Source of the DNA: an uncultured bacterium
GTDB taxonomy: Bacteria; Schekmanbacteria; GWA2-38-11; J061
Length of the DNA: 20,800 bases
Assembly (NCBI GenBank): GCA_964549305.1
Contig: CAZJVM010000046.1
Coordinates: forward strand, 1 to 20,800
Direction: 5' to 3'
Shown: one piece after another, positions 1 to 13,227 of the stretch
Layout of the letters: every line of letters begins with the position of its first letter
How positions within the stretch are numbered: the stretch's first letter is position 1
Translations under genes and position numbers: made by a program
The notes under the pieces: model-generated
Database searches by the model: none
What the model was told of the DNA's origin: nothing
What the model saw: only the letters and a program-made list of their open reading frames with translations

Positions 1-936
1 CTTTATGATGTAGCCATCTGCGGCGCTGGGGCAGGGGGGCTTTCGGCATCCATTTTCTGCCGAATGAGAGAAATGAAAACCCTTCTTCTTGACCTGAAAT
101 CAGGCGGAGGACAGATGCTTTCTATATATCCCGCAAAACCTGTAAGGGATTATCCCGCATATCCTGAGATTCCCGCACGGGAACTTGCCCTCAATATGAT
201 AAGACAGACAAAATCTATGGGAATTAAAATCTGCCAAAATGAAAGACTTCAGGATATCACGAAATCCGATGATATTTTTTCAATCCTCACCACAAAAAAC
301 AGCTATAAAACAAAAACCGTCATACTTGCAATGGGAGCGGGAATCTATAACCCGAGAAAACTTGGAATCATAGGCGAAGAGGATTTCTGTGGCAAAGGAG
401 TCACTTACGGAATCCCCTCTATAAAAGAAACGCGGGAAAAAAAGATAATATGCGTGGGCGGCGGAAACAGCTCTCTTGAAACAGCGCTCACCGTGAAAGA
501 CTTTGCCGAATCTGTCACAATAGTGCACAGAAGCAACACGCTTGAAGCCTACGAGTTCTATATAGACGCCGTAAAAGACTCTTGCGTAAAAGTACTTTAC
601 GATTCCGAATTGAAGGAAGTAATGGGAAACGATTCGGTAAAGGAAGCGATAATCTACGACAAGAAAAGTGACGACTACAATAAAGTGGAAGCCGACATAA
701 TCATAATCAATGTTGGAAGCGTGCCTTATTTTCAGAAGATACAAAAATGGGGAATCGGTGTGGATAAGTCAGGCGTAACAGTTGACAGGGAAATGAATAC
801 CTCAGTTCCGGGAATTTATGCCTGTGGTGATATGGTTTCCTACCGGGGAAAACTGAAACTTCTGATTTCAGCAAGCGGAGAAGGTTCCATTGCCGCGGAA
901 TCGGCATTCAAATATACAAAGGAACATTTCAGCTAA
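1..936 (+). CDS. TrxB-fold FAD-dependent oxidoreductase, ferredoxin-NADP(+) reductase type 2 (YumC-like); 5' end lies outside the window
   Basis: Frame is open from base 1 (LYDVAICGAGAGGLSASIFCRMRE..., FAD-binding GxGxxG), so the ATG at 64 is internal. Motifs GGQMLSIYPAKPVRDYP, VILAMGAG, second Rossmann VGGGNS, TSVPGIYACGD and YRGKLKLL match the TrxB/FNR family. No CxxC at the TrxR active-site position (GKGVTYGIP). Confidence 0.85.
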   Translation, partial: LYDVAICGAGAGGLSASIFCRMREMKTLLLDLKSGGGQMLSIYPAKPVRDYPAYPEIPARELALNMIRQTKSMGIKICQNERLQDITKSDDIFSILTTKNSYKTKTVILAMGAGIYNPRKLGIIGEEDFCGKGVTYGIPSIKETREKKIICVGGGNSSLETALTVKDFAESVTIVHRSNTLEAYEFYIDAVKDSCVKVLYDSELKEVMGNDSVKEAIIYDKKSDDYNKVEADIIIINVGSVPYFQKIQKWGIGVDKSGVTVDREMNTSVPGIYACGDMVSYRGKLKLLISASGEGSIAAESAFKYTKEHFS

Positions 937-2119
937 AGGGCAAAAGGGAAATTTTTAGAGTCGTTCCTCTGCCCTCGGAGCTTTCAATGCCAACCCTTCC
1001 GCCGTACTTCATTACAATCTGATTGACCACGGAAAGTCCCAGACCGAACCCTTCTCCTTCCGGACGCGATGTATAAAAGAAATCAAACACGGAATTAACC
1101 TTATCTTCGTCGATTCCTACTCCGCTGTCGGCAATCTCGAGCACTACGTACCCGCCTTCTCCATATCCCCGAATGCTGACATTCCTTTCTTCGGACAAGG
1201 AGACTGCCTGAAAAGCATTCATAAGAATGCTTACTGTAACTTGCCTCAACTCCCACAATGACCCTTTCACCGCGGGAAGGTCTTTCGGCAAATCCTTAGT
1301 TACGTTTATATTGTTTTCTTCCTTCATTCTCTTTAACAAAGGAAGGGTTTTTTCGATAACCTCATCCCAACTCACAGCGACTATTTTATCCTCTTTCACC
1401 GGTTTGGAGTATTCAAGGAGATTGCCAACCACATTACTGCACCTGTTTCCGCCGTCGATTGCAATATCCACAAATTTGTCAAGTTTCGCCTTCAATCCTT
1501 TTTCCGAATAAAAGGACTCCTTTAAATTTTCCAGGTCATTAACCTTCACGCCCTTCTGAGATAATTCTTCGAATATCTTTTTCCCAAAACGGTCAATTTC
1601 TCTTCTCAAAAGCTGAAGATTGGCTATTACTCCCGTAAGCGGGTTATTAATCTCGTGCGCGACTCCGCCTGCAAGACGACCTATGGACGCGAGTCTCTCC
1701 CTGTTCAACATTTCTTTTTTGAGAGAGCTGAGTCCTATGATGCTTTCCGCTCTTGTTCGAAGCTCATAGGCATTTATGGGGCGTACTATACAGTCGTCCG
1801 CGCCAAGACTAATTGCCTTCGCCTTCTCTTCTATTTCACGAAGAGAAGAAATGAATATAACAGGAATAGCGCGTGTTTCCACTTTTTCCTTTAATTTCTG
1901 AAGGACCCTGAATCCGTTCATTGAAGGAATGATATCATCGAGAATTATAAGGTCTGCGCCATTATCGTTTATGAATTCAAGAGCTTTCCCAGGTTCCCTG
2001 AAAGCGCGAACATTATACCCAGACGGTGAAAGGCTATCAGAGATTTTTTTTGAGGAATTCTCGGAGTCATCGACAACTACCACGGAAACATCTTCGGAAG
2101 TCTTTGTCACCTCAACCAT
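929..2119 (-). CDS. Cytoplasmic REC-histidine kinase hybrid (N-terminal receiver + HisKA + HATPase_c)
   Basis: Receiver VVVVDD...DLIILDDIIPSMNG; H-box GVAHEINNPL; N-box ILMNAFQA; G1 IADSGVGI; F-box VFDFFYTS; G2 GFGLGLS. No TM segments. Overlaps the nitroreductase stop, and converges on the FNR with an 8-bp overlap. Confidence 0.9.
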   Translation of the reverse strand: MVEVTKTSEDVSVVVVDDSENSSKKISDSLSPSGYNVRAFREPGKALEFINDNGADLIILDDIIPSMNGFRVLQKLKEKVETRAIPVIFISSLREIEEKAKAISLGADDCIVRPINAYELRTRAESIIGLSSLKKEMLNRERLASIGRLAGGVAHEINNPLTGVIANLQLLRREIDRFGKKIFEELSQKGVKVNDLENLKESFYSEKGLKAKLDKFVDIAIDGGNRCSNVVGNLLEYSKPVKEDKIVAVSWDEVIEKTLPLLKRMKEENNINVTKDLPKDLPAVKGSLWELRQVTVSILMNAFQAVSLSEERNVSIRGYGEGGYVVLEIADSGVGIDEDKVNSVFDFFYTSRPEGEGFGLGLSVVNQIVMKYGGRVGIESSEGRGTTLKISLLPFS

Positions 2120-2684
2120 CGACTCCCTCCCATTTTACTCTCCCCGGTTTGCGCCGGGAATGTTCGGGAGATTCCTCCGGATACCCGATTGTTATTATGC
2201 CTGCAAGCTCTTTGTCCCCGACGCCAAGGAAATCCGATATGTCTTCTGCAACATAAATGGCGCTTGAAACCCAACAGGCGCCAAGCCCTTCGGCGTGCGC
2301 CGCAAGGAGAAGATTTTCAACGCTTGCCGCCACGGAAAAAAGAGCTTCCGGGGAGGTTGTAAGGTCAACATCGGAAAAAACCGCAATGATGTTTGGTGCT
2401 TCGCCTGCAATATCAAGAAAAAAATCCGTTCTTTTACGAACACCCTCCGAAATATCATCATCGAGACATTCGGTAATTTTTCTAAATGAGTCCTCGAGGA
2501 AGCCAAACAATTCTTTTTTCTTTTCTCCTCCAAGGATGATGTAATGCCAATTCTGCCAATCCATATATGAAGGAGCCCATAATGCCGCCTCAACTACTTT
2601 TTCAAGAACATTCTTCGCGACAGGTTCCGGTTTGTAGCGCCGTACGCTTCGTCTCGTCTTTATAAGGTCCAAGATTTCCATCAA
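2112..2684 (-). CDS. Nitroreductase family flavoprotein
   Basis: IKTRRSVRRY FMN-binding motif, AALWAPS, ENLLLAAHAEGLGACWV, IITIGYP. Confidence 0.92.
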   Translation of the reverse strand: MMEILDLIKTRRSVRRYKPEPVAKNVLEKVVEAALWAPSYMDWQNWHYIILGGEKKKELFGFLEDSFRKITECLDDDISEGVRKRTDFFLDIAGEAPNIIAVFSDVDLTTSPEALFSVAASVENLLLAAHAEGLGACWVSSAIYVAEDISDFLGVGDKELAGIITIGYPEESPEHSRRKPGRVKWEGVDG

Positions 2685-2720: not shown

Positions 2721-2951
2721 TTATTTTATTGTGCCCACTTTTTCAAAACTGCTGAATACCTCATCAGCGTGGGGCGCGCCGTCCATATCAGCGGTAAGGT
2801 CGACACCCGCGACGTGCATACCCACGTGCAAACCGTCTCCCCAAAAACTGCTGTCCGTGAGGTCATAAACACTGCCGTTATAGGCGACATAAGCTTTTTT
2901 GCCGTCCTTCCCGTCAAATTGGGCAAGCTCATCAAGGGTGAATTCTTTCAT
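2721..2951 (-). CDS. Cytochrome b5-like heme/steroid-binding domain protein
   Basis: FTLDELAQFDGKDGKKAYVAYNGSVYDLT...W..GLH..MHVAGVDLT...APH signature; GGAGG RBS upstream of the ATG. Confidence 0.9.
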   Translation of the reverse strand: MKEFTLDELAQFDGKDGKKAYVAYNGSVYDLTDSSFWGDGLHVGMHVAGVDLTADMDGAPHADEVFSSFEKVGTIK

Positions 2952-3006: not shown

Positions 3007-3183
3007 CTACTCAGAAACTAATTGAAGTCCTGCATCGAATACAACACTGCAACTCGGGCATATTAACTTCATCGCAATCCGCTTTTTACCTTTTCTTTCA
3101 AGCATAATATGAAACCCGTCCCTGTAACCACAGTTCGGGCACACTTTAAAGCTTTTCTTAATTTCAACTTTTTGAACAGTCAT
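3007..3183 (-). CDS. 58-aa four-cysteine zinc-ribbon/rubredoxin-like microprotein (CPNCG...CPSC), not in the ORF track
   Basis: Hand translation from ATG at 3183 to TAG at 3009-3007: MTVQKVEIKKSFKVCPNCGYRDGFHIMLERKGKKRIAMKLICPSCSVVFDAGLQLVSE*. Two CPxC knuckles; same strand as, and 55 bp upstream of, the cytochrome b5 gene. No strong RBS seen. Confidence 0.8.
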   Translation of the reverse strand: MTVQKVEIKKSFKVCPNCGYRDGFHIMLERKGKKRIAMKLICPSCSVVFDAGLQLVSE

Positions 3184-3352: not shown

Positions 3353-4036
3353 TTATTTATCCTTATACATATCCACACGGGGAATTACTTCATATTGGAT
3401 ATCATCAAGTTTTTGCCTGATTATTTCTTCGATTCGTTTATCTTCTTCCGTCCGGATAACACTGTTAATTTCATCGAGCACTTTTTCTTTCCACTTGTTG
3501 CTTGCCACGGCGATTTCCCTGTCAGATTTTAAATCTTCATCGGAAACCTTCTCGAGGTTTTCCTTCATCGAATCCATATTTCTGTTCACCACACCTATAA
3601 TCCTGTCTTTGAGCGCTCTTTCCAGTTTTTCCTTCATCAGGATTACGTCCAGTGACTCGAGAAATTCATCGGAATCGAATCCTATGTGGTCTATTCTTAC
3701 AGTAATGTCTTCATCAAGAAGTTCATACCGCATTTTTTCAGCAGAGTTTTTTCTCCAGGAACGAATATAATAATTTTTACTGCCGTCAGTGGCCTTTATA
3801 AACGATTCATTGTTGGGTTCGGAAAAATAACCTCTCGAAAGTATTTCATTTTCCAATATTTGAAGAAGTGAAATTTTATGTCCGCGATGCCTGTTGTAAA
3901 AATCCCTGCGGTCATCTTTTTCTATCTCCTCTATATGTTCGCCTTCTCCGGTAACTTTATATTCCGGACAATCATCGAATTCAGTGATTTTCATTGCACT
4001 TCCGCATTCAAAACAAACAAGAATTTCATTATCCAT
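3353..4036 (-). CDS. Hypothetical protein with N-terminal CxxC and HxxH (possible C2H2 metal site)
   Basis: 227-aa ORF with AGAGGA RBS, 24 bp downstream of the HD-GYP gene; VCFECG and RHRGH motifs; charged helical C-terminus. Family not recognised. Confidence 0.75.
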   Translation of the reverse strand: MDNEILVCFECGSAMKITEFDDCPEYKVTGEGEHIEEIEKDDRRDFYNRHRGHKISLLQILENEILSRGYFSEPNNESFIKATDGSKNYYIRSWRKNSAEKMRYELLDEDITVRIDHIGFDSDEFLESLDVILMKEKLERALKDRIIGVVNRNMDSMKENLEKVSDEDLKSDREIAVASNKWKEKVLDEINSVIRTEEDKRIEEIIRQKLDDIQYEVIPRVDMYKDK

Positions 4037-4060
4037 ATCATTATTCCTCTTATTAAAATA

Positions 4061-5161
4061 TTATTTAAAAGGATCTAATTTATCTTCATCTATTAATCTC
4101 AGAAGAATACTCACAAGTTCTGCGTCAAACTGAGTTCCCGCATTCATCTTGAGTTCTTTTATGACTTCCTCTCTGCTGAGTGCCTTTCTGTAGGGTCTGT
4201 CGCTTGTCATCGCCTCAAGGGAATCTGCAAGACAAACTATCCTTGAAGCAATGCTTATCTCATTTCCCGCCAATCCGTCGGGATAACCCTTCCCGTCTAT
4301 TCTCTCGTGATGGTGAAGCACCACATCGGAAATCAGCGAAGACATTTTTAGGGGGTCAATCAGTTCGAAACCGCGCTCCGGATGTTCCTTGATTAAACGC
4401 CAGTCATCTTCCGTGAGAGGCGTTTTTTTCATGTATGCATCACCTATCCCGATTTTTCCAATGTCGTGAAGAAATGACGCGACTTGTATCTCTTTGTTCT
4501 CTTTTTCCGAAAACCCGTATTCGTCGGAGAGAATATCAGCATACATAGAAACTCTGCTTGAATGCCCTTCGGTAAATATGTCATGACTTTCAAATGTGCA
4601 GGAGAGTATTTTGACAAACTCCGTAAAATCTTCATCTTCAACTTTTTTATTTCCGCTTTTGCTGATGAGAAGGTCCTTTAAATGACTTCCCGCTTCCTTT
4701 GATTTCAGGATGTTATATTCATTGTCATCACTGTTATACTTTGGGTCTAATTCTTTTATTCTGGAGAGAAAATCCTTCAACTGAAGATTGACCACTCTCC
4801 TTTCCGCAGCTTTTCTGATTACGGAAATTATCTCAGCCACATTGAAAGGTTTCGTAATATACTCATAGACACCCCAGTGAATAGCGCCTATCGCGCTTTT
4901 AACGGATGAGTTTCCTGTTATGACGATGACTTCGATTTCGGAATTGATTTTCTTTATCGCCTTTAGTACTTCGTTGCCGTCGAGCCCGGGCATCCTCAAA
5001 TCAAGTGTGACGATGTCTATATTTTCGTTTTTGACAATATCCAGCGCTTTGTTGCCGTTTTCAGCTATAAAGACATTATACGAGGGCTTAAGAATCATTC
5101 TTAAAGATTCTCTTGGTCCTATTTCGTCATCAACTATGAGTACGTTTTGATTCATTTCCAT
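4061..5161 (-). CDS. Response regulator with HD-GYP domain (putative c-di-GMP phosphodiesterase, RpfG-like)
   Basis: Intact receiver (LIVDD, TLDLRMPGLDG, VITG, YITKPF) followed by TEGHSSRV, LHDIGK, HPERG, HHERIDGKGYPDGL and AMTSDRPYR; AGGAGG RBS at 5167-5172. Confidence 0.93.
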   Translation of the reverse strand: MEMNQNVLIVDDEIGPRESLRMILKPSYNVFIAENGNKALDIVKNENIDIVTLDLRMPGLDGNEVLKAIKKINSEIEVIVITGNSSVKSAIGAIHWGVYEYITKPFNVAEIISVIRKAAERRVVNLQLKDFLSRIKELDPKYNSDDNEYNILKSKEAGSHLKDLLISKSGNKKVEDEDFTEFVKILSCTFESHDIFTEGHSSRVSMYADILSDEYGFSEKENKEIQVASFLHDIGKIGIGDAYMKKTPLTEDDWRLIKEHPERGFELIDPLKMSSLISDVVLHHHERIDGKGYPDGLAGNEISIASRIVCLADSLEAMTSDRPYRKALSREEVIKELKMNAGTQFDAELVSILLRLIDEDKLDPFK

Positions 5162-5212
5162 CAGTACCTCCTGTAAAAATTCGAACTTCCGGATGTTCTA
5201 AGGGTTTCTCAC

Positions 5213-5228
5213 TGCAATATCTGTGCCA
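5213..5228 (-). promoter_or_regulatory. Sigma54 (RpoN) -24/-12 promoter for the HD-GYP gene
   Basis: Minus strand reads TGGCACAGATATTGCA = TGGCAC-N5-TTGCA with exact GG-N10-GC spacing. Predicted +1 near 5202, about 40 nt before the ATG; adjacent to a sigma54 activator gene. Confidence 0.88.
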
Positions 5229-5265
5229 AAAAATAAATTTGGGAAGATGTTTATTCTTTACGGAA

Positions 5266-5278
5266 TAAGTGTTTGAAA
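5266..5278 (-). promoter_or_regulatory. Candidate IHF-binding site between sigma54 promoter and enhancer
   Basis: Minus strand TTTCAAACACTTA, one mismatch to WATCARNNNNTTR, at about -64 to -76. A perfect match (AATCAGCATCTTA) lies at 5382-5394. AT-rich background weakens both. Confidence 0.4.
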
Positions 5279-5324
5279 ATTAAAGATAAATTTTCATTGA
5301 AGAAAATTGTAAAAATAAGGAGGT

Positions 5325-5361
5325 TGTCAATTTTGAAGAAAAGATGTGTTCAAATTTGAAC
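5325..5361. promoter_or_regulatory. Candidate tandem upstream activator sequences (bEBP enhancer)
   Basis: Perfect 14-bp palindrome GTTCAAATTTGAAC (5348-5361) and imperfect copy TGTCAATTTTGAAG (5325-5338), 23 bp apart, centred about 130 and 152 bp upstream of the predicted sigma54 start. Confidence 0.55.
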
Positions 5362-5505
5362 GGTTTTTGAAGAGAGATATATAAGATGCTGATTTTTAAG
5401 GGAATGAACGCGTCATATTTTTTACATACATAGAATAACGCAAAAAAAACCAACAAAAATCAGGATACAGGTTCAGAAAGGAGTTAAGAAAAAATCGAAG
5501 GTTTT

Positions 5506-6858
5506 TTAAACATCAATCCCCAGCTTGTCCATTTTGTATTTTAAAACTCTGCGGCTTATTCCAAGAATATCCGCCGCTCGTGTTTGTATATTATTTGATT
5601 TTTTAAGCGCTTCCATAATCAGCTCTTTTTCAAGCTCGCTCTCCGCTTCTTCAAAAAGTATTCCGTCAGAGGCGACGCTGTTTTTCAACTCATCGAAAAG
5701 CGTCCGCTTCCTGAGATGCTCGGGCAAATCGCTCTTCGTTATCTCGGTTTTTTCCGTAAGGGTAATCAATCTCTCGATTGTATTTTCAAGCTCTCTTATA
5801 TTGCCGGGCCATTTGTAGTTGGTCAATATCTTCATCGCTTCAATGTCAATCCTCTTCTCTTTGCATTTTAACTCCCGTGATTTTCTTTTTAAAAAATGCT
5901 TTACAAGCGGCTCAATATCGTTTTTTCTGTCTCTAAGAGCAGGCACATAAATCGGAACAACATTGATTCTATAGAAAAGGTCTGAACGAAATCTACCCTC
6001 CGAAACCTCTTTTTCGAGATTTTTATTGGTTGCGGTAATCAATCTTATATCTATTTTAACGGGAGGACGACCTCCTACTCTTGTAAGCTCTCTTTCCTGA
6101 ATAACTCTTAATATCTTCGCCTGCATTGAAAGGGGAATATCGGCAATTTCATCAAGGAGAAGCGTTCCTCCGTGAGCCATTTCAAATTTTCCTATTCTCT
6201 TGGAAACAGACCCCGTGTAAGCGCCCTTTTCCGCGCCGAAAAGTTCACTTTCAATTAACGCTTCGGGAATGGCAGCACAGTTAATGGCAATGAACGGTTT
6301 CTTCTTCCGATCGCTTAAATTATGAATGGCTCTGGCAATGAGTTCTTTCCCCGTACCGCTTTCTCCCGTTACAAGCACTGTTGACTCGGTCCCGGCAACT
6401 TTTTCTATTATCCCGAATACTTCCTTTATCTTGTGGGAGTTGCCAACTATATCTTCAAAGACGTGTTTGCCGGAAGTATCTTTTTGTGACGGAGTTATTC
6501 TTTCACGGAAAACGGCATTATCAACTACCGTTTTGATTTCCGAAACGCAAAAAGGTTTTGTTATATAATCATAAGCCCCTATCTTCATTGCAGAAACGGC
6601 AGTTTTAAGGGTTTTGGTAGCTGTAAGCATAATGACCTTAATTTTTTCATTTTCCGATTTAAGTCTTTTCAGTATTTCAATTCCGTCAATGCCCGGCAAA
6701 ATAATATCCAGAAGAACGACATGGGGGTTTTCCTTCTCTACCATTCTGAATGCTTCTTCCCCGTTGCTGGCAAGAAAAACATTATAGTCATTTTTAAAAA
6801 TTATTCTCAGAGACTCTCTTACACTTATTTCATCGTCAACTATGAGCAGCTTTTTCAA
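5506..6858 (-). CDS. Sigma54-dependent response regulator (NtrC/AtoC family: REC + AAA+ + Fis-type HTH)
   Basis: Receiver LIVDD/LLDIILPG/LTA/YITKPF; Walker A GESGTGKE; INCAAIPEALIESELFG; loop 1 GAYTGS; Walker B LLLDEI; FRSDLFYRIN; WPGNIRELEN; HTH TRAADILGISRRVLKYKM. TTG start. Confidence 0.95.
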   Translation of the reverse strand: MKKLLIVDDEISVRESLRIIFKNDYNVFLASNGEEAFRMVEKENPHVVLLDIILPGIDGIEILKRLKSENEKIKVIMLTATKTLKTAVSAMKIGAYDYITKPFCVSEIKTVVDNAVFRERITPSQKDTSGKHVFEDIVGNSHKIKEVFGIIEKVAGTESTVLVTGESGTGKELIARAIHNLSDRKKKPFIAINCAAIPEALIESELFGAEKGAYTGSVSKRIGKFEMAHGGTLLLDEIADIPLSMQAKILRVIQERELTRVGGRPPVKIDIRLITATNKNLEKEVSEGRFRSDLFYRINVVPIYVPALRDRKNDIEPLVKHFLKRKSRELKCKEKRIDIEAMKILTNYKWPGNIRELENTIERLITLTEKTEITKSDLPEHLRKRTLFDELKNSVASDGILFEEAESELEKELIMEALKKSNNIQTRAADILGISRRVLKYKMDKLGIDV

Positions 6859-6885
6859 TTTCGCGCCCTTCTTTCTCCGTTAAAG

Positions 6886-8748
6886 TTAATCGCTTTTCCC
6901 CAGTGAGAGCAGATACCCGAAAGAATCTTCAATATCTTTTAAATAGAAAACAGACCCTTCACATTTTCCTACTGCTTTTTGTGCCAAAATGACCGTCATC
7001 TCTTCCAACTCTTCGCTCTTCTTTATCAATTCTCCCGATTTTTCATCAACGCAAATCTTTAATTCAACTTTGTCGTTAAAACCGTTATCACCGGAAATTT
7101 GGGACATAATTCTTATTATATTCCCCCGGGTGCAGTAACTGACAAGTGAAAAAAGAAGATTTTCGATGGAATACTTGATAACCTTTTTGGGGAATTTTAC
7201 TTTGGGATTGTCCTTGTCAAGCTGAAGCTCAACAGTCAGACTCTTTTCACGAAAAATATTCTTCTTTTCTTCGATTATCTCATTTACAACTTCATTGAGA
7301 GGAAATTCTTCTGCAACTGCGTTGTTGACGTTTTCATATTGCATAATTCTTTCTATGAGCAAATCAATGCGGTCGATATCACTATTCACTATTTGAAAGA
7401 AGTCCTTGCGAAATTCCACATCATCATATTTCTCCGGAAGAAGGCTTGCAAAAGTTTTGATTCCCACAAGAGGATTCTTAATTTCATGGGCAAGATTAAT
7501 CACTATGTCTGACGGCAGTTTCTCTTCATCCCCTCTGTCAGACGCTGTCTCGGGAAAACTTTCAGTCACAGGGTTTCTTACGGAATTTTCACTATGAGAA
7601 GATATTTCTTCACCTCCGGCATCTTCGCAAATCTTAAGGGGCATAAACTTCACATCATTTTCATTAACAGTATCCGATTCGCAAAATAATATACTTCTTT
7701 GAACAACGCTAATCAGTTCATCGATATTCGAAGGCCAGATGTATTTTTGCATAATATCAATCGCGGAAGAAGAGAAGGACTTAAAGGGGATGGAGTATTT
7801 CGAGCAATAAAATTCAGCAAGGTTATTGACTATCAGAGGGATTTCATCAGTCCTTTCACATAGAGAATGAAGTGAACATTCGGCAACTGACAAGCGATAA
7901 AAAAGTTCATCGTTTATCTTTTTTTCATTCAATAGCTCTTTGAGAGAAAAACGTGAAGACGCGATGATTCTCAACCTTATATCGGTCACTTCTTTTTCAT
8001 CAACCTTCAGATTTTCCATTCCGTCAAGAAGGGAAAGAATTTGCTCTTTAGATTCAGTGGAAAGGGCATCGAAATTCTCAATATATAGAGTTCCGCAAAT
8101 GAAGTCATCTTGTCGCAAAGTATTGACAATGCGGGAAAAGATTCCATTATCTTCATCGATGCCGTTAATTTTTAAAAACCCGAAACTTCTCATAGATGAA
8201 CCGTCATGAATCATTCTTGCAACATCCGCCCCTCTCATACCTCTTGCGCATTTAAAGAAAACCGGTATTCCCGTTTTCATGAGGAGCGATAATTTTTTAT
8301 TGGCGGGCATCCCGATAAAGGGATTCATATTTATGAAAAGTCCACTGCCGGCATTTCCCGGTGCCATGGCTATACTTCTTTTTTCTTTTAAATCATTAAA
8401 CAGAGATTCCGCCACATCGGGTATCGATAAAACAGAATCCGCTTTTCTGGCAAGGCAGATGACTTTTCCGAAAGGCAGGAAATAGGAAATTGCCCTGTCA
8501 TTTTCAGGTGATATGGTAATTAACGCTTTGTCATCGAGCTTTTCCGGAATATTGCCTAAAGCGGAAAAAAACTCCTTTAACGGTTTGTCAGTCCCAAATA
8601 TTATCAATTCAGCATCACTGCCCGATAAAATTTCACCAATTCCCTTTTCCGCGGCACATTCGGTGACTTCATAATCATCTTTTAAAACAATTCTCAGAGA
8701 TTCCCTGTAAATAAGAGAGTCGTCAATTATTAATACTTTTTTCTTCAT
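6886..8748 (-). CDS. Atypical signalling chimera: pseudo-receiver + degenerate sigma54-type AAA+ + HisKA (His retained) + degenerate HATPase
   Basis: N-terminus VLIIDDSLIYRESLRIVL; AAA+ remnants GTLYIENFDAL, LRIIASS, ELFYRLSV, YIWPSNIDEL; H-box LAHEIKNPLVGIKTF. C-terminal region lacks recognisable N, G1 and G2 boxes. ATG abuts the kinase stop (TAAATG). Confidence 0.8.
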   Translation of the reverse strand: MKKKVLIIDDSLIYRESLRIVLKDDYEVTECAAEKGIGEILSGSDAELIIFGTDKPLKEFFSALGNIPEKLDDKALITISPENDRAISYFLPFGKVICLARKADSVLSIPDVAESLFNDLKEKRSIAMAPGNAGSGLFINMNPFIGMPANKKLSLLMKTGIPVFFKCARGMRGADVARMIHDGSSMRSFGFLKINGIDEDNGIFSRIVNTLRQDDFICGTLYIENFDALSTESKEQILSLLDGMENLKVDEKEVTDIRLRIIASSRFSLKELLNEKKINDELFYRLSVAECSLHSLCERTDEIPLIVNNLAEFYCSKYSIPFKSFSSSAIDIMQKYIWPSNIDELISVVQRSILFCESDTVNENDVKFMPLKICEDAGGEEISSHSENSVRNPVTESFPETASDRGDEEKLPSDIVINLAHEIKNPLVGIKTFASLLPEKYDDVEFRKDFFQIVNSDIDRIDLLIERIMQYENVNNAVAEEFPLNEVVNEIIEEKKNIFREKSLTVELQLDKDNPKVKFPKKVIKYSIENLLFSLVSYCTRGNIIRIMSQISGDNGFNDKVELKICVDEKSGELIKKSEELEEMTVILAQKAVGKCEGSVFYLKDIEDSFGYLLSLGKSD

Positions 8749-10875
8749 TTATTGCCGTTCGTTCTTTCTCCGTTCCACTGAAGCGGGATTTCCCGGCAGG
8801 TCAATTATAAACACACTGCCTTTACCCATTTCGCTTTCGGCTCTTATGTTTCCCCTGTGTTCCTGAATAATCTGATGGCTTATGGAAAGCCCAAGACCCG
8901 TCCCTTCATGCTTTTTAGTAAAAAAAGGATTAAATATACTCTCAAGGTCTTTTTTTTCTATTCCCGTCCCCGTATCGGCAAACTCAATCTGCGCATAAAT
9001 CCTGTCGTCGTGACGCACATTTCTTGTGGTAATTTGTATCTTTCCGTTTTCGGGTGTTGCCTGTATCGCGTTTAATATTATATTCAAAAATACCTGTTTA
9101 ATCTGTTCCTTGTCAACAGCTACGAGACGCAAATTTTCGTCATAGAACTTTTCAATTCTTATCAATTTCTTTTTTACCTGATTTTCAATAAGGAATATTA
9201 TATTATCTACAAGTTCGTTGAGGTTTTCTTCGGCAAGATTCGGCTTAGAAGGTTTGGAAAAATCGAGGAGTGCCGTTAAAAGCGTGCTTATCCTGTCAAC
9301 TTCGGCGGTAGTTATTGTGAGAAAATCGGTTCTGAACTCTTCGTCGTTTATCCTCTCGGGCAGAAGCTGAAGAAAGGTTTTTATGGAAACAAGAGGGTTT
9401 CTTATTTCATGAGCCATTCCCGCCGCAAGTTGTCCCAGCGAAGCGAGCCGGTCAGACCTTCTAATTCTGTTTCTCGATTCTTTCAGGCTTTCATATAATT
9501 TGGCATTTTCCACATATACGGCGAATTGATTGGAAAGAGTCTGAAAAAGCTTCAATTCATTTTCATTGTATATTTCCCCGTTCATTTTCTTTCCCATACA
9601 CAATGAGCCGATAAGGTTTGAGCGGTTAAGAATGGGGACGCAGATTTCCGCGCTTAGCTCACTCATTTTTTCGAGTATATAGCCGCTTCTTGGAATATAG
9701 GGGCTTTCCATTATTTCCTCCTTCACGACAACGGTATTTTTTTCTTCAAGCCACCGGAAGAAAAAATCGTTTTTCTCATATTTTGTATCATTTGAATTGC
9801 CGTTCATGCCGCAGGAGGACTCAACTTTGAATTCCCCCGTTTCTTCGTTTAAAAGGACAATACTCGCGTGGTCGATATCAAGCTTTTTAACCACTGTTTC
9901 AACCATAGTGTTCAACAGGGGTGCCATTTCGAGCACTTTGATCATGGCATCACTCAATTCGTGAATGGTTTCCTCGTGATTTACCTGTTTTTTAAAAAGG
10001 ATATTTTCCAGAGTTCTTTCCGTTCCTATTTTCGCTCTCGGAAAAATAAGCCCAACTAATATAAAAAGGGCAAGCATCATGAGGCTGAAAGGTAAGTTAA
10101 CGAAACCGAAGACCTTCTCCTGTGACCATAGGAGGATCGCATAACAGGGCACAATGAGAATAAGGACTATCACGGAGTAGGTTAGACTCTTCTTTATGAC
10201 AAAGGATATGTCAAGAAGCTTGTATTTTATAATAGCATAACTCACGATAAAAACAAAAATCGCCGTAAAGGGAGACGCTACGGGAACTGCGCTATCAAAA
10301 ACAAGGGGGAAAAATGAAGTAAGACCGCTCATATATCCGAAAAAGGACGCTATAAAAAGATATCTTATCTGATTCTTTCTTATTGCCATCTCAGTAACGA
10401 GATATTCCGAAACAAGCTCATAGAGGATAAGCATTGCCACGGTAATGAAAACTATGAAATGAATAATATATGCCTTTTCCGGAATTTCATAAAAACCAAT
10501 ATTAGCGCGCCTCTCCACACCGCTGATGAAATAAGGAGTATAACTTAAAATGAGTTCCGCGAAACCGGCTATATAAACGCCGATAAGAAGCCCCTTCCTC
10601 TCCTGAAGGTTATTAATGAATGCCGTAATGAAGTGCATACTGAAGATAGGGACAAATATCGCTCCCGCGTAAATAATCCTGCACCAGAAGAGCGCTTCTT
10701 CGGGAGTGGAAGCAATAGATATGCTGAAGCGTCCGTACTGCCACAAGGATGCCGCAATGCAGAGAAGAAGCCAGGTGACGTTGGCAATATTGCGCTTGTT
10801 TTTCCAGAATACGAAAAAACCCGACGAAAGGGTAAAAACCGTTCCGAAAAGAAATCCTAGGGAATAAACGCCCAT
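8749..10875 (-). CDS. Membrane sensor histidine kinase (N-terminal 7TM-type multi-pass region + GAF + HisKA + HATPase_c)
   Basis: About 9 hydrophobic segments in the first ~280 aa; GAF-like ICVPIL...LIGSLCMGKKMNGEIYNENELKLFQTLSNQ; H-box MAHEIRNPL; N-box NIILNAIQA; G1 FADTGTGI; IFNPFFT; G2 GTGLGLS. Confidence 0.93.
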   Translation of the reverse strand: MGVYSLGFLFGTVFTLSSGFFVFWKNKRNIANVTWLLLCIAASLWQYGRFSISIASTPEEALFWCRIIYAGAIFVPIFSMHFITAFINNLQERKGLLIGVYIAGFAELILSYTPYFISGVERRANIGFYEIPEKAYIIHFIVFITVAMLILYELVSEYLVTEMAIRKNQIRYLFIASFFGYMSGLTSFFPLVFDSAVPVASPFTAIFVFIVSYAIIKYKLLDISFVIKKSLTYSVIVLILIVPCYAILLWSQEKVFGFVNLPFSLMMLALFILVGLIFPRAKIGTERTLENILFKKQVNHEETIHELSDAMIKVLEMAPLLNTMVETVVKKLDIDHASIVLLNEETGEFKVESSCGMNGNSNDTKYEKNDFFFRWLEEKNTVVVKEEIMESPYIPRSGYILEKMSELSAEICVPILNRSNLIGSLCMGKKMNGEIYNENELKLFQTLSNQFAVYVENAKLYESLKESRNRIRRSDRLASLGQLAAGMAHEIRNPLVSIKTFLQLLPERINDEEFRTDFLTITTAEVDRISTLLTALLDFSKPSKPNLAEENLNELVDNIIFLIENQVKKKLIRIEKFYDENLRLVAVDKEQIKQVFLNIILNAIQATPENGKIQITTRNVRHDDRIYAQIEFADTGTGIEKKDLESIFNPFFTKKHEGTGLGLSISHQIIQEHRGNIRAESEMGKGSVFIIDLPGNPASVERRKNERQ

Positions 10876-10881
10876 TTTATT

Positions 10882-12135
10882 TTATATCTTCTTAAAAATG
10901 CAGACTGCATTATATCCGCCGAATCCGAAAGATATTTTCATTACATTCTTCAAAACCTTTTCATTCCCTTGTGACGATACGAAATTAAGGTTGCACTCAG
11001 GGTCAGGGTCTTCGAGATTTAGCATTGGATGGAGAAAATTATTTTCCATCATCAACAGGCAAGCTGCAATTTCAAGAGAACCGCAACCGCCCATTGCATG
11101 ACCTGTGTAAGGTTTTGTCGCGCTTACAAAGATACTGCCCGACAATTCTCCGAAGACATTTTGAATAGTAAGCGCCTCCGCCCTGTCATTATGAAGGGTC
11201 CCGCTTGCGTGGGGATTTATATAGTCTATTTTTTCAGGATTGAGTTTTGCGTCTTTAAGGGCTATCTTCACGGCGTTTTCCGCCTGCTTTGCGTCAGGGA
11301 GAGGAGTCATTACGTGATAGGCGTCTGCCGTTGCGCCATAACCCGTTATTTCGGCATAGATTTTGGCTCCCCGTCTTTTTGCCCTTTCCATCTCCTCAAC
11401 GATAAAAAGCGCCGAACCTTCGCCGAAAACAAGCCCGTCTCTTTTTCTATCAAAAGTCTTGTAAGCTTTTTTCGGGTCTCCTTCCGCAGTGCTAAGCAGA
11501 TTCACATTGGCAAAGGTGCCCATTGCAAAAGGAGTAACAGGTGTTTCCGAACCGCCTGCAATCACTATCTCGCTTCTTTCAGACCTTATCAATTCCGCCG
11601 CTTCACCTACTGCCGAAGTAGATGACGCGCAGGCAGTTGTCAATGTGGAACAGGGACCGGATATCCCGAGATTAATCATTATCTGGCTTGCCGCTGAGCT
11701 TGGAATAATCGATGTGGCAAAAAAGGGATTTATCCTCTTATAGCCCTTTTCCATAAACAAAGCATGCTGGCGCTCGCCTATAGCAAGCGCTCCCACGGAA
11801 GTACCCACAATCACGCCGATTCTGTCTCTTTCCTCAGTATCGAGATTCAGGTCTGAGTCTTCGACTGCCATCTTTGCCGCGGCAATCCCGAATTGCGCAA
11901 ACCTGTCCAACCTCTTCGCGCTTCTTGCCGGAATAAAATCCTCCGGATTAAAATCATTGGCTTCCGCGGCAAATTTGCACGGTAAAGACGACGCATCGAA
12001 ACTCTTTATATAGTCAACACCGGTAATACCGTTTTTCAGAGAATGCCAAAATTTTTCTTTTCCTATACCAATTGCTGATACGACTCCAAATCCTGTAATT
12101 ACGGCACGCTTTCTCAAAAAAATTTCCTCCTTCAT
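10882..12135 (-). CDS. Beta-ketoacyl-ACP synthase II (FabF-type ketosynthase); no acpP or other fab gene adjacent
   Basis: RAVITGFGVVS, DRFAQFG, catalytic Cys in TACASS, His in NPHASGT, His in KPYTGH, GLVFGEG, SFGFGGYNA. Confidence 0.92.
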   Translation of the reverse strand: MKEEIFLRKRAVITGFGVVSAIGIGKEKFWHSLKNGITGVDYIKSFDASSLPCKFAAEANDFNPEDFIPARSAKRLDRFAQFGIAAAKMAVEDSDLNLDTEERDRIGVIVGTSVGALAIGERQHALFMEKGYKRINPFFATSIIPSSAASQIMINLGISGPCSTLTTACASSTSAVGEAAELIRSERSEIVIAGGSETPVTPFAMGTFANVNLLSTAEGDPKKAYKTFDRKRDGLVFGEGSALFIVEEMERAKRRGAKIYAEITGYGATADAYHVMTPLPDAKQAENAVKIALKDAKLNPEKIDYINPHASGTLHNDRAEALTIQNVFGELSGSIFVSATKPYTGHAMGGCGSLEIAACLLMMENNFLHPMLNLEDPDPECNLNFVSSQGNEKVLKNVMKISFGFGGYNAVCIFKKI

Positions 12136-12173
12136 GAATTCTGTTCATCATTTCTTCTGAATTTAATATTTTA

Positions 12174-12701
12174 TCATTTCAGGTAGTTATCTCCAAATTT
12201 TTCCTTCATTTTTTTTTCTTCGAGAAGTACTCTCACTAAAAGAAAAGGCATATATGAAACCATTGCCAAAAGCAGGGTATAAAAAGCGTTTGCAACGAGC
12301 GGAAAACTCAATATCTCCAAAAGCACGGAAAAATAATAAGGATGCCTGGTTAATTTATAAAGCCCTTCTCTTATGAGAGGATGATTTTCGCGAATTTCAA
12401 TATGTACGCTGTGATATTTACCCAAAGTCTTTATCGCCTTGTTTCTTACGAAAAGCGCCGCAAAAAAAAGCGCAAATCCTATGGCGGAAATTACGGGATT
12501 AATGTCTCTTTCAATAATCAGAAATTCGGATATAACGGATATAACCAGAAGAATATGAGTTATCATCAGAGCATTGAATGTCCATAGATAATGTATTGTC
12601 CCCTTTTCCTTTTCCCTTTTCGAAAAAGTTTCCGCAAGACGCTCGATTGACATAAAGGCAATAAAAATAAAAATAATTCCAATATATAAATTATCAGTCA
12701 T
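12174..12701 (-). CDS. Isoprenylcysteine carboxyl methyltransferase (ICMT/PEMT) family membrane methyltransferase
   Basis: Several TM helices; AIKTLGKY, HPLIREGLYKLTRHPYY and RVLLEEKKMKEKFGDNY match the ICMT/Ste14 SAM-binding C-terminal motifs. Confidence 0.88.
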   Translation of the reverse strand: MTDNLYIGIIFIFIAFMSIERLAETFSKREKEKGTIHYLWTFNALMITHILLVISVISEFLIIERDINPVISAIGFALFFAALFVRNKAIKTLGKYHSVHIEIRENHPLIREGLYKLTRHPYYFSVLLEILSFPLVANAFYTLLLAMVSYMPFLLVRVLLEEKKMKEKFGDNYLK

Positions 12702-12894: not shown

Positions 12895-13227
12895 ATGTCC
12901 AATTTTCTTAACCAAAAAGGGAAATATTCAATGTCAGAAGCTAAAAAGGAAAAATTATTAAAAAATCAGTTCACAATCTGGGAAGGAAAAGTTTCGATAA
13001 GTAATAACAATCTTAACAAGAATGGGATTATTCCCGTAAGATTGAATAAAAACAAAGCAGTCCTTTTATCGGAAGATGCGGATATTTTATGTGAATTGTC
13101 CGATGATATTTCACAGGTAATAGCAAACTTTATTAAAAAAGATATTTTTATAAGTGCAATTATTACGGCAAGGCCCGACAAAAAAAACGCAACTGTAAAA
13201 ATCAAAATATTCGCTTTCTGTGAATAG
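12895..13227 (+). CDS. Small hypothetical protein, weak resemblance to a HIRAN-like beta-barrel; start may be the second ATG (12931)
   Basis: 110-aa ORF filling the gap between two minus-strand blocks. Pattern NKAVLL..D..ILCELSDDISQVIA..IKKDIFISAII loosely resembles HIRAN. Low GC. Confidence 0.5.
   Translation: MSNFLNQKGKYSMSEAKKEKLLKNQFTIWEGKVSISNNNLNKNGIIPVRLNKNKAVLLSEDADILCELSDDISQVIANFIKKDIFISAIITARPDKKNATVKIKIFAFCE

Follow-up and report, generated by a model that had tools for sequence, protein, structure and literature searches.

The window analysed here, a stretch of 20,800 nucleotides, is the whole contig C46 of the source genome G000, from an uncultured bacterium of the Schekmanbacteria. 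Close relatives of its ketosynthase also carry the label Candidatus Schekmanbacteria. A block of seven genes is located on the window, as listed in Table 1. A membrane methyltransferase of the ICMT family, a FabF-type ketosynthase (KS) and a sensor histidine kinase with a seven-transmembrane (7TM) domain are followed by a chimeric pseudo-protein and an NtrC-type activator, and then, behind a sigma54 promoter, by a receiver (REC) protein with an HD-GYP-type domain and a hypothetical 227-aa protein. Here we describe the block as a candidate synthase–receptor signalling module. All seven open reading frames (ORFs) are on the minus strand, and the intergenic gaps from the ICMT gene to the 227-aa gene are 38, 6, 0, 27, 344 and 24 bp. 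A first-pass annotation of the window had read the genes at these positions as a candidate lipid-signal circuit. Its gene order, coordinates, gaps and domain content were confirmed by the ORF list and by Pfam and NCBIfam scans.

Table 1. Genes and regulatory features of the block, from the first gene to the last
Feature	Position	Strand	Evidence
ICMT-family membrane methyltransferase, 175 aa	12174..12701	-	Pfam ICMT, E 5e-17
FabF-type ketosynthase (KS), stand-alone, kinase-linked group	10882..12135	-	Pfam ketoacyl-synt N and C
Sensor histidine kinase, 708 aa	8749..10875	-	Pfam HisKA_7TM+GAF+HisKA+HATPase_c
Pseudo-protein chimera, 620 aa	6886..8748	-	Pfam partial Sigma54_activat+AAA_lid+HisKA
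NtrC-type sigma54 activator (REC-AAA-HTH)	5506..6858	-	Pfam REC+Sigma54_activat+HTH_8; NCBIfam
Enhancer-like motif, two moderate matches	5298..5362	-	5362-5347, 9.5 bits; 5313-5298, 10.0 bits
Sigma54 -24/-12 promoter of output pair	5213..5228	-	sequence match; in 13/13 loci examined
REC + HD-GYP-type protein	4061..5161	-	Pfam REC and HD_5; HD pair + GYP motif in alignment
Conserved protein, 227 aa, outside known families	3353..4036	-	no Pfam match; invariant Cys/His

Conservation of the block

The gene block is a conserved module. The kinase is present in all four relatives of the same order (G001-G004), and in each of these Schekmanbacteria the ICMT, KS, kinase and chimera genes are adjacent. 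G002 and G003 also show the downstream half; in G001 and G004 the contig breaks off within the chimera. G003 and G004 carry the 7TM kinase as a tandem pair, together with a B12 radical S-adenosylmethionine (SAM) gene in the ICMT/KS block.

A search for the KS clade gave 22 genome loci and 76 metagenome loci. Twelve of the genome loci show 47-52% identity, and their titles name Binatia, deltaproteobacteria and, once, Acidiferrales. Among the metagenome loci, the 40 non-Schekmanbacteria loci at 42% identity or more were tallied; some of them duplicate genome loci, and the counts are not independent. Wherever the downstream DNA is long enough to tell, the kinase directly follows the KS (11/11 genome and 33/33 metagenome loci, mostly of Binatia). 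The NtrC, receiver-output and hypothetical genes follow in every long locus (10/10 genome, 11/11 metagenome), and the full chimera is found in 8/10 and 10/11 of these, respectively. A divergent FadL gene is located beside the block in 12/12 genome and 27/27 metagenome Binatia-type loci. In Binatia the KS is the sole enzyme of the block. The gene order in L095 is KS-ICMT-kinase-REC-HD-hypothetical, and the adjacency of KS and 7TM kinase persists despite such changes of order (L095, L155). Therefore, according to the comparison of relatives, the core of the module consists of the KS, the kinase and the relay, and the ICMT and the output domain are exchangeable. In many Binatia loci (L033-L044), a small HTH_17 gene heads the operon and the FadL gene is divergent; short direct repeats lie 5' of the HTH_17 gene, near a sigma70-like promoter.

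Ketosynthase, methyltransferase and membrane kinase

The best models for the window KS are those of FabF/KAS II and not the FabH-like ones (KAS III), and its TIGR03150 score of 481.3 bits narrowly misses the equivalog cut-off of 493.75. The catalytic set C169, H309, K341 and H346 is invariant in 32 of 32 aligned clade members; here and below, single residues were read off alignments. The first-pass annotation had raised the question of whether this KS is the only FabF of the genome. A second KS, on contig C102 and with 40% identity to the window KS, groups with housekeeping FabFs. The single acyl carrier protein (ACP) detected in G000 is on contig C16, among fabD-, fabG- and rnc-like genes (named by eye). 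KS presence was checked in 15 genomes, and 14 of them have a kinase-linked KS plus a separate KS closer to that of C102 (two of the 14 are cut by contig ends). The remaining genome, G312, has a housekeeping-type KS only, and its kinase begins at a contig end.

In a tree of 34 rows, one branch, with an SH-aLRT support of 100, separates the kinase-linked KSs from the housekeeping FabFs. A single clade of the Schekmanbacteria cluster and housekeeping KSs is rejected in this tree (p-AU 3e-22), and thus a recent KS duplication within Schekmanbacteria is ruled out. The 34 rows remained after 20 of 54 had been dropped as long branches, unlinked KSs or near-duplicates, and the dropped rows include the kinase-linked L146 (two rows) and L137_2788. 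In the 54-row tree, which is a quick tree only, the rows of L146, L263, L045 and L103 fall between the groups. These results indicate that the window KS is not the housekeeping FabF, and we propose it as a signal synthase. In all five genomes of the order (G000:C102, L020-L024), the housekeeping fabF is located away from acpP, 5' of a carboxyl-transferase-like gene, and at least four of the five have a B12 radical SAM-like gene before it.

The kinase scores 45.2 bits against PF16927 (HisKA_7TM; gathering threshold 28.6) and 49.3 bits in a second scan, and HisKA and HATPase_c domains are present. It consists of HisKA_7TM (residues 1-228), two further helices, a GAF domain (about 295-466) and a transmitter with H489. 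The transmitter residues are invariant in the alignment, and the transmitter is intact. The AlphaFold2 (AF2) model of residues 1-470 has a pLDDT of 91. In this model, residues 1-228 align to folds of G-protein-coupled receptors (GPCRs) over about 200-220 residues (VIA-align; Z 15-17, rmsd 3.2-4.2), and residues 295-466 align to GAF domains with Z up to 18.4. According to the model, residues 1-228 adopt a GPCR-like fold; such a fold has already been published for 7TM histidine kinases (PMC13581589). Hydropathy gave seven segments as opposed to nine helices in the model, and the model was preferred. The kinase family is large, and the deep branches of the 7TM tree are poorly resolved, with receptors not sorted by synthase type. 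On two Manganitrophus plasmids (L054, L055), a related kinase, extended N-terminally by additional membrane sequence, is followed by sigma54 activators; no KS is found among its annotated neighbours there.

The first-pass annotation had proposed that linkage between such kinases and biosynthetic genes be sought in other genomes. A search of 401 genomes with the kinase profile listed 125 places, with only two candidates scored per genome. Of the 118 places outside G000-G004, 100 were fetched, and the 90 with at least 1 kb upstream were counted. A KS on the same strand, within 3.5 kb upstream of the kinase, was found for 16 of the 34 close-7TM kinases (13 families), and for none of the 56 other kinases (0/23 with a distant 7TM domain, 0/33 without one). 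Each of four loci chosen as controls was found to encode a 7TM domain and to have a KS directly upstream; 38 control neighbours scanned with Pfam are housekeeping or unknown genes. Any gene of a wider panel was found upstream of 22/34 close-7TM, 2/23 distant-7TM and 1/33 non-7TM kinases. KS and ICMT were named beforehand. The counts of the other panel members (pyridoxal phosphate (PLP) acyltransferase, LuxI/FeeM-like GNAT, thioesterase and START cyclase) are circular, because these were drawn from the test loci.

The alternative partners of the close 7TM kinases are all users of acyl thioesters. The GNAT of L163 scores above the Autoind_synth and FeeM cut-offs. PLP enzymes of the alpha-oxoamine-synthase type precede the 7TM kinases of L135, L149, L169 and L178; none of them reaches an NCBIfam cut-off, and models of serine palmitoyltransferase and BioF/Kbl fit them better by score than the CqsA-type model does. 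Other close 7TM kinases are preceded by a PilZ-thioesterase or by a thioester reductase. In L134, L149, L169 and L179, the synthase-like genes located upstream of related 7TM kinases (radical SAM, PLP acyltransferase, GNAT, thioesterase) are fused to PilZ, which hints at control of product synthesis by cyclic di-GMP (c-di-GMP).

The ICMT gene of the window is the only ICMT match in G000, and ICMT is found beside the KS in G001-G004. ICMT is upstream in five of the 34 close-7TM loci, always alongside a KS (5 of the 16 KS loci), and it recurs in L095. It is absent from all Binatia-type loci with upstream DNA (0/12 genome, 0/27 metagenome). The window ICMT ends about 15-20 residues before most relatives in the alignment; it and the ICMT of G002 (L009:11301) stop right after the last invariant Tyr, and the C-terminal tail is kept in the eight other aligned homologues. 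The family member BpsB O-methylates alkylpyrones and resorcinols (PMC9827899). The ICMT is best read as a putative optional tailoring enzyme, accessory to the module.

The covariation of the KS with its neighbours was compared in two sets of 15 and 14 Binatia-type loci. The KS distance follows that of the 7TM domain with rho 0.84 and 0.86 (partial 0.76 given NtrC and 0.85 given GlnS); the permutation counts are inflated by kinship, as related genomes are not independent. The corresponding values are 0.53 and 0.54 for the GAF domain and 0.68 and 0.46 for the kinase core. NtrC gave 0.53 and GlnS 0.32. FadL, on the other flank, does not follow the divergence of the KS (0.26). This pattern would be expected if the membrane domain reads the KS product, and it agrees with the assignment of sensing to that domain in the first-pass annotation.

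Alternatively, the KS may serve as a cytoplasmic sensing subunit: acyl-ACP or acyl-CoA would acylate it or be bound by it, and it would report the status of fatty-acid synthesis to the kinase by direct contact, with little or no free product. The binding of RpfF by RpfC is a precedent for contact between a synthase and a kinase (PMC13220807), and a KS that is the only enzyme of the Binatia block is consistent with such a role. In a wider set of 30 kinase-linked KSs, nine carry another residue in place of the second catalytic His, and the Cys is mostly kept. On the other hand, all four catalytic residues are invariant in the clade of the window KS, which tracks the membrane domain more closely than the cytoplasmic GAF domain or kinase core. 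START cyclases and KS pairs resembling a KS with its chain-length factor adjoin related KSs; in L137, one member of the pair lacks the Cys and is chain-length-factor-like. Together with ICMT, these neighbours imply that a product is tailored. We regard a sensing subunit as unlikely.

Relay, chimera and output genes

The NtrC-type activator, the catalytic residues of which are intact, scores below all equivalog cut-offs shown, including that of PrsR (420.5 versus 502.6 bits). The -24/-12 element is the window's sole exact match; two sigma54 matches, versus 0.32 expected by chance, are obtained if one mismatch is tolerated. In the 13 loci of Table 1, window included, the element precedes the receiver-output gene, and strict matches are absent in L277, L095, L155 and L164. 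Relatives share a conserved palindromic enhancer-like motif, located 70-190 bp upstream of the sigma54 promoter and with a Gibbs score of 210 versus 124-126 in four shuffled sets. The matrix was built without the window. The window sites are only moderately specific, because sites of at least 10 bits occur genome-wide at 0.07 per kb. This matrix defined no wider regulon: just one other of 48 promoters outscored the window site.

The REC-HD-GYP protein is a probable c-di-GMP phosphodiesterase, judging from its motifs. REC-HD proteins are found in Schekmanbacteria, G158, G011, G180, L095, L155 and L164. HD-GYP as the output of the circuit, as first annotated, is not universal. The Binatia gene behind the sigma54 promoter has an orthologous receiver with HisKA-HATPase in place of HD-GYP.

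The 227-aa protein has 158 homologues, and no Pfam family is found among the 120 listed. Its invariant residues C8, C11, H50 and H53 may form a zinc site. It is encoded in 9 of the 401 genomes, and all nine also match the kinase profile. No Foldseek match at E<=0.001 and no usable Atlas match were obtained, and the C-terminal half gave just helical-bundle matches (Z<=8.6). A paralogue stands alone elsewhere in Schekmanbacteria genomes (G000:C60 3183-3944; L272, L280, L281).

In G011 and G180, the NtrC gene, the promoter, the REC-HD gene and the 227-aa gene follow a different kinase, of the AAA-PAS type. Thus, the output half can work with another input. The occurrence of the downstream part without an adjacent KS in these two genomes is what mere co-location would give, that is, a lipid-tailoring pair and a signalling cascade that share a transcript by history and are not functionally coupled. 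The adjacency of KS and 7TM kinase in 13 families, versus none of 56 controls, and its survival through the changed gene orders of L095 and L155 make this explanation very improbable.

The chimera has eight homologues that cover most of its length; a chimera-only search of the genome contigs found no loci. The first 370 residues match the NtrC protein encoded next to it (profile alignment, E 3e-41), with Gly in place of the phospho-Asp, a Walker A motif that has decayed and lost its lysine, and no sigma54-contact loop. Its last 200 residues align with the transmitter of the neighbouring kinase (E 8e-33); H421 and N530 are kept and the ATP-binding glycine boxes are lost. According to these alignments, the chimera is a degenerate NtrC-like REC+AAA part fused to a degenerate kinase transmitter, and is predicted to be catalytically dead. 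The gene order kinase-chimera-NtrC suggests a tandem duplication of the kinase-activator pair, with fusion at the junction. The phospho-His helix is the same as that of the kinase and therefore should meet the same receivers. The chimera may act as a phosphate sink, phosphatase or inhibitor. It is dispensable in some lineages; L042 and L088 are without it. In L034 it is split into two ORFs. The chimera is a clear example from nature of a pseudo-activator and a pseudokinase joined in one protein.

Proposed signalling and related systems

On balance we favour, by a modest margin over even chances, a synthase–receptor signalling module in which the 7TM domain has the product of the KS as its ligand. 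The KS would draw acyl-ACP and malonyl-ACP from the general pool and release a small acyl condensation product. An alkylpyrone or ketide is plausible; the alkylpyrone is suggested by the chemistry of BpsB (PMC9827899) and by the START cyclases beside related KSs. ICMT would O-methylate the product in the window, and further modification in relatives would fall to B12 radical SAM enzymes. The product would then bind inside the GPCR-fold domain of the adjacent kinase and change the phosphorylation of H489. The kinase would feed both the NtrC receiver and the REC domain of the output protein, the first helices of which resemble each other. Phosphorylated NtrC would turn on the sigma54 promoter for the REC-HD-GYP protein and the Cys/His protein; the phosphodiesterase would therefore be both induced and activated, and c-di-GMP would change. 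In Binatia, a second kinase would take the place of the phosphodiesterase. The chimera, presumably unable to bind ATP or to take phosphate on Asp, would buffer the relay as a phosphatase, a phosphate sink or a dominant-negative partner. The most likely use of such a module would be a released, density-dependent signal.

Several observations weigh against a KS-made ligand. No panel gene is upstream of 12 of the 34 close-7TM kinases. The loss of the second His in some kinase-linked KSs also fits a non-synthase role, and the shortened C-terminus of the window ICMT is a further unfavourable point. The PLP neighbours could make membrane lipids, and block recombination of adjacent DNA could give the covariation of KS and 7TM domain, although the FadL gene of the other flank does not share it. 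The fetched regions of G011 and G180 contain neither a KS nor a 7TM kinase. A sigma54 element is found in none of the 16 regions lying upstream of the gene that opens the block, as the first-pass annotation had already cautioned for the ICMT gene, and no enhancer-like match above 7.2 bits is found before the synthase genes (12 regions). Thus, there is no visible positive feedback. Autoinduction lacks support from the promoter region, and indirect feedback may operate.

The missing feedback promoter also suits a system that monitors its own membrane. Here, the KS would make a long-chain lipid that resides in the membrane (an alkylpyrone methyl ether or a modified fatty acid), and the 7TM kinase would read this lipid, or the membrane state, intracellularly and without a cell-to-cell signal. 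The products made by type III polyketide synthases (PKSs) and ICMT have been discussed as modifiers of the membrane (PMC9827899), the PLP partners are similar to serine palmitoyltransferase, and several B12 radical SAM partners match lipid-associated models below cut-off. The rapid, matched divergence of KS and 7TM domain among close relatives is more suited to private signals, and a LuxI/FeeM-like GNAT can occupy the synthase position. The divergent FadL gene beside 39/39 Binatia-type loci also points away from self-monitoring, though it may reflect shared ancestry. We give self-monitoring a low probability and continue to prefer a small acyl product that is released by the KS and bound by the 7TM domain.

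Known systems resemble the module in part. The PhcB/PhcS/PhcR genes of Ralstonia are adjacent, and PhcR is a REC-kinase, as is the Binatia output; RpfF of Xanthomonas is a crotonase-family synthase; and CqsA/CqsS and LuxM/LuxN of Vibrio are linked to sigma54 by LuxO. In the Phc system, an acyl-derived, methylated signal is read by a sensor kinase (PMC7154725), as is proposed here from the genes. The module differs in its KS II synthase, optional ICMT-family enzyme, HisKA_7TM sensor and sigma54 relay. The RpfF/RpfC/RpfG system, of the diffusible signal factor (DSF), joins a fatty-acid-derived cue and a membrane kinase to a phosphorylated c-di-GMP phosphodiesterase (PMC13220807), and the output protein of the window has REC and HD-GYP domains like RpfG. 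Unlike in Rpf, no crotonase family is found by Pfam among the block proteins, the kinase is without REC or histidine phosphotransfer (HPt) domains, and the HD-GYP gene, which is replaced in Binatia, has a sigma54 promoter before it. CqsS and LuxN are membrane kinases for acyl signals (PMC13220807), and sister kinases of the window kinase similarly adjoin PLP acyltransferases and a LuxI/FeeM-like GNAT. In the block, however, the synthase is a KS and there is no LuxU-type HPt protein. The N-terminal 470 aa of the kinase matched no CqsS/LuxN-type NCBIfam model, and none appeared in fold searches; no receptor sequence was compared.

Stand-alone ketosynthases as signal synthases are known from Photorhabdus, in PpyS (photopyrones) and DarABC (dialkylresorcinols) (PMC7154725), both products being read by LuxR solos. 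The parallel to PpyS drawn in the first-pass annotation does not hold at the family level, since PpyS is FabH-like (PMC7154725); the window KS is FabF-type and, unlike PpyS and DarABC, is paired with a kinase. BpsA/BpsB of Bacillus likewise combine a condensing enzyme with an ICMT-family O-methyltransferase, but BpsA is a PKS of type III, and a linked sensor is unmentioned in the portion of the source consulted (PMC9827899). PrsK/PrsR, of the PEP-CTERM/exosortase system, are a membrane kinase and a sigma54 activator with a stimulus called obscure (PMC1569441). The window proteins score below the corresponding cut-offs (TIGR02916, 124.6 versus 300; TIGR02915, 420.5 versus 502.6 bits), and no exosortase, PrsT or exopolysaccharide (EPS) genes are found in the window. 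A separate PrsK-like gene with HisKA_7TM is on contig C65 of G000, on another branch of the 7TM tree and beside an exosortase-like gene (named by eye). The module is outside the PrsK/PrsR, housekeeping FabF, PpyS-type KS and Rpf families.

Linked and co-varying synthase and receptor genes, as looked for in quorum sensing, were found here by gene linkage and distances. No description of the module was found in a literature search, which had subscription journals and supplements outside its reach. The module is a real, widespread and apparently undescribed variant of synthase–receptor signalling. More tentatively, and with somewhat less than an even chance, it may represent a widespread, undescribed quorum-sensing family of uncultured bacteria, in which each kinase with a GPCR-fold ligand pocket has an exchangeable synthase of an acyl signal as its partner. 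This synthase would mostly be a dedicated FabF-type KS; ICMT, B12 radical SAM and cyclase genes would diversify the signal, and the fused pseudo-activator/pseudokinase would buffer the relay here. If so, the first ligand class for the HisKA_7TM domain would be at hand. The literature found on HisKA_7TM deals with archaeal or eukaryotic kinases and, in the portion seen, names no ligand (PMC5847659). Such a family would also bring a new signal chemistry (stand-alone KS II), a class of GPCR-fold bacterial receptors whose matched pairs occur naturally, and a means of communication for abundant lineages of soil and subsurface, e.g. Binatia and Schekmanbacteria. As the synthase gene is directly 5' of the kinase gene, the ligand question is reduced to a two-gene problem.

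Other genes flank the block. A 110-aa ORF (12895-13227, plus strand) is divergent from the ICMT gene in an AT-rich stretch (GC about 0.30); it matches neither Pfam nor NCBIfam models and is without a paralogue in G000. Downstream, a 58-aa ORF (3007-3183, minus strand) has two Cys pairs, which we take by eye to be zinc-ribbon-like, and a 76-aa ORF (2721-2951, minus strand) presumably resembles a cytochrome b5-type heme/steroid-binding domain (by eye). About 0.7 kb downstream of the block, a nitroreductase gene overlaps a REC-HisKA-HATPase gene (929-2684, minus strand).

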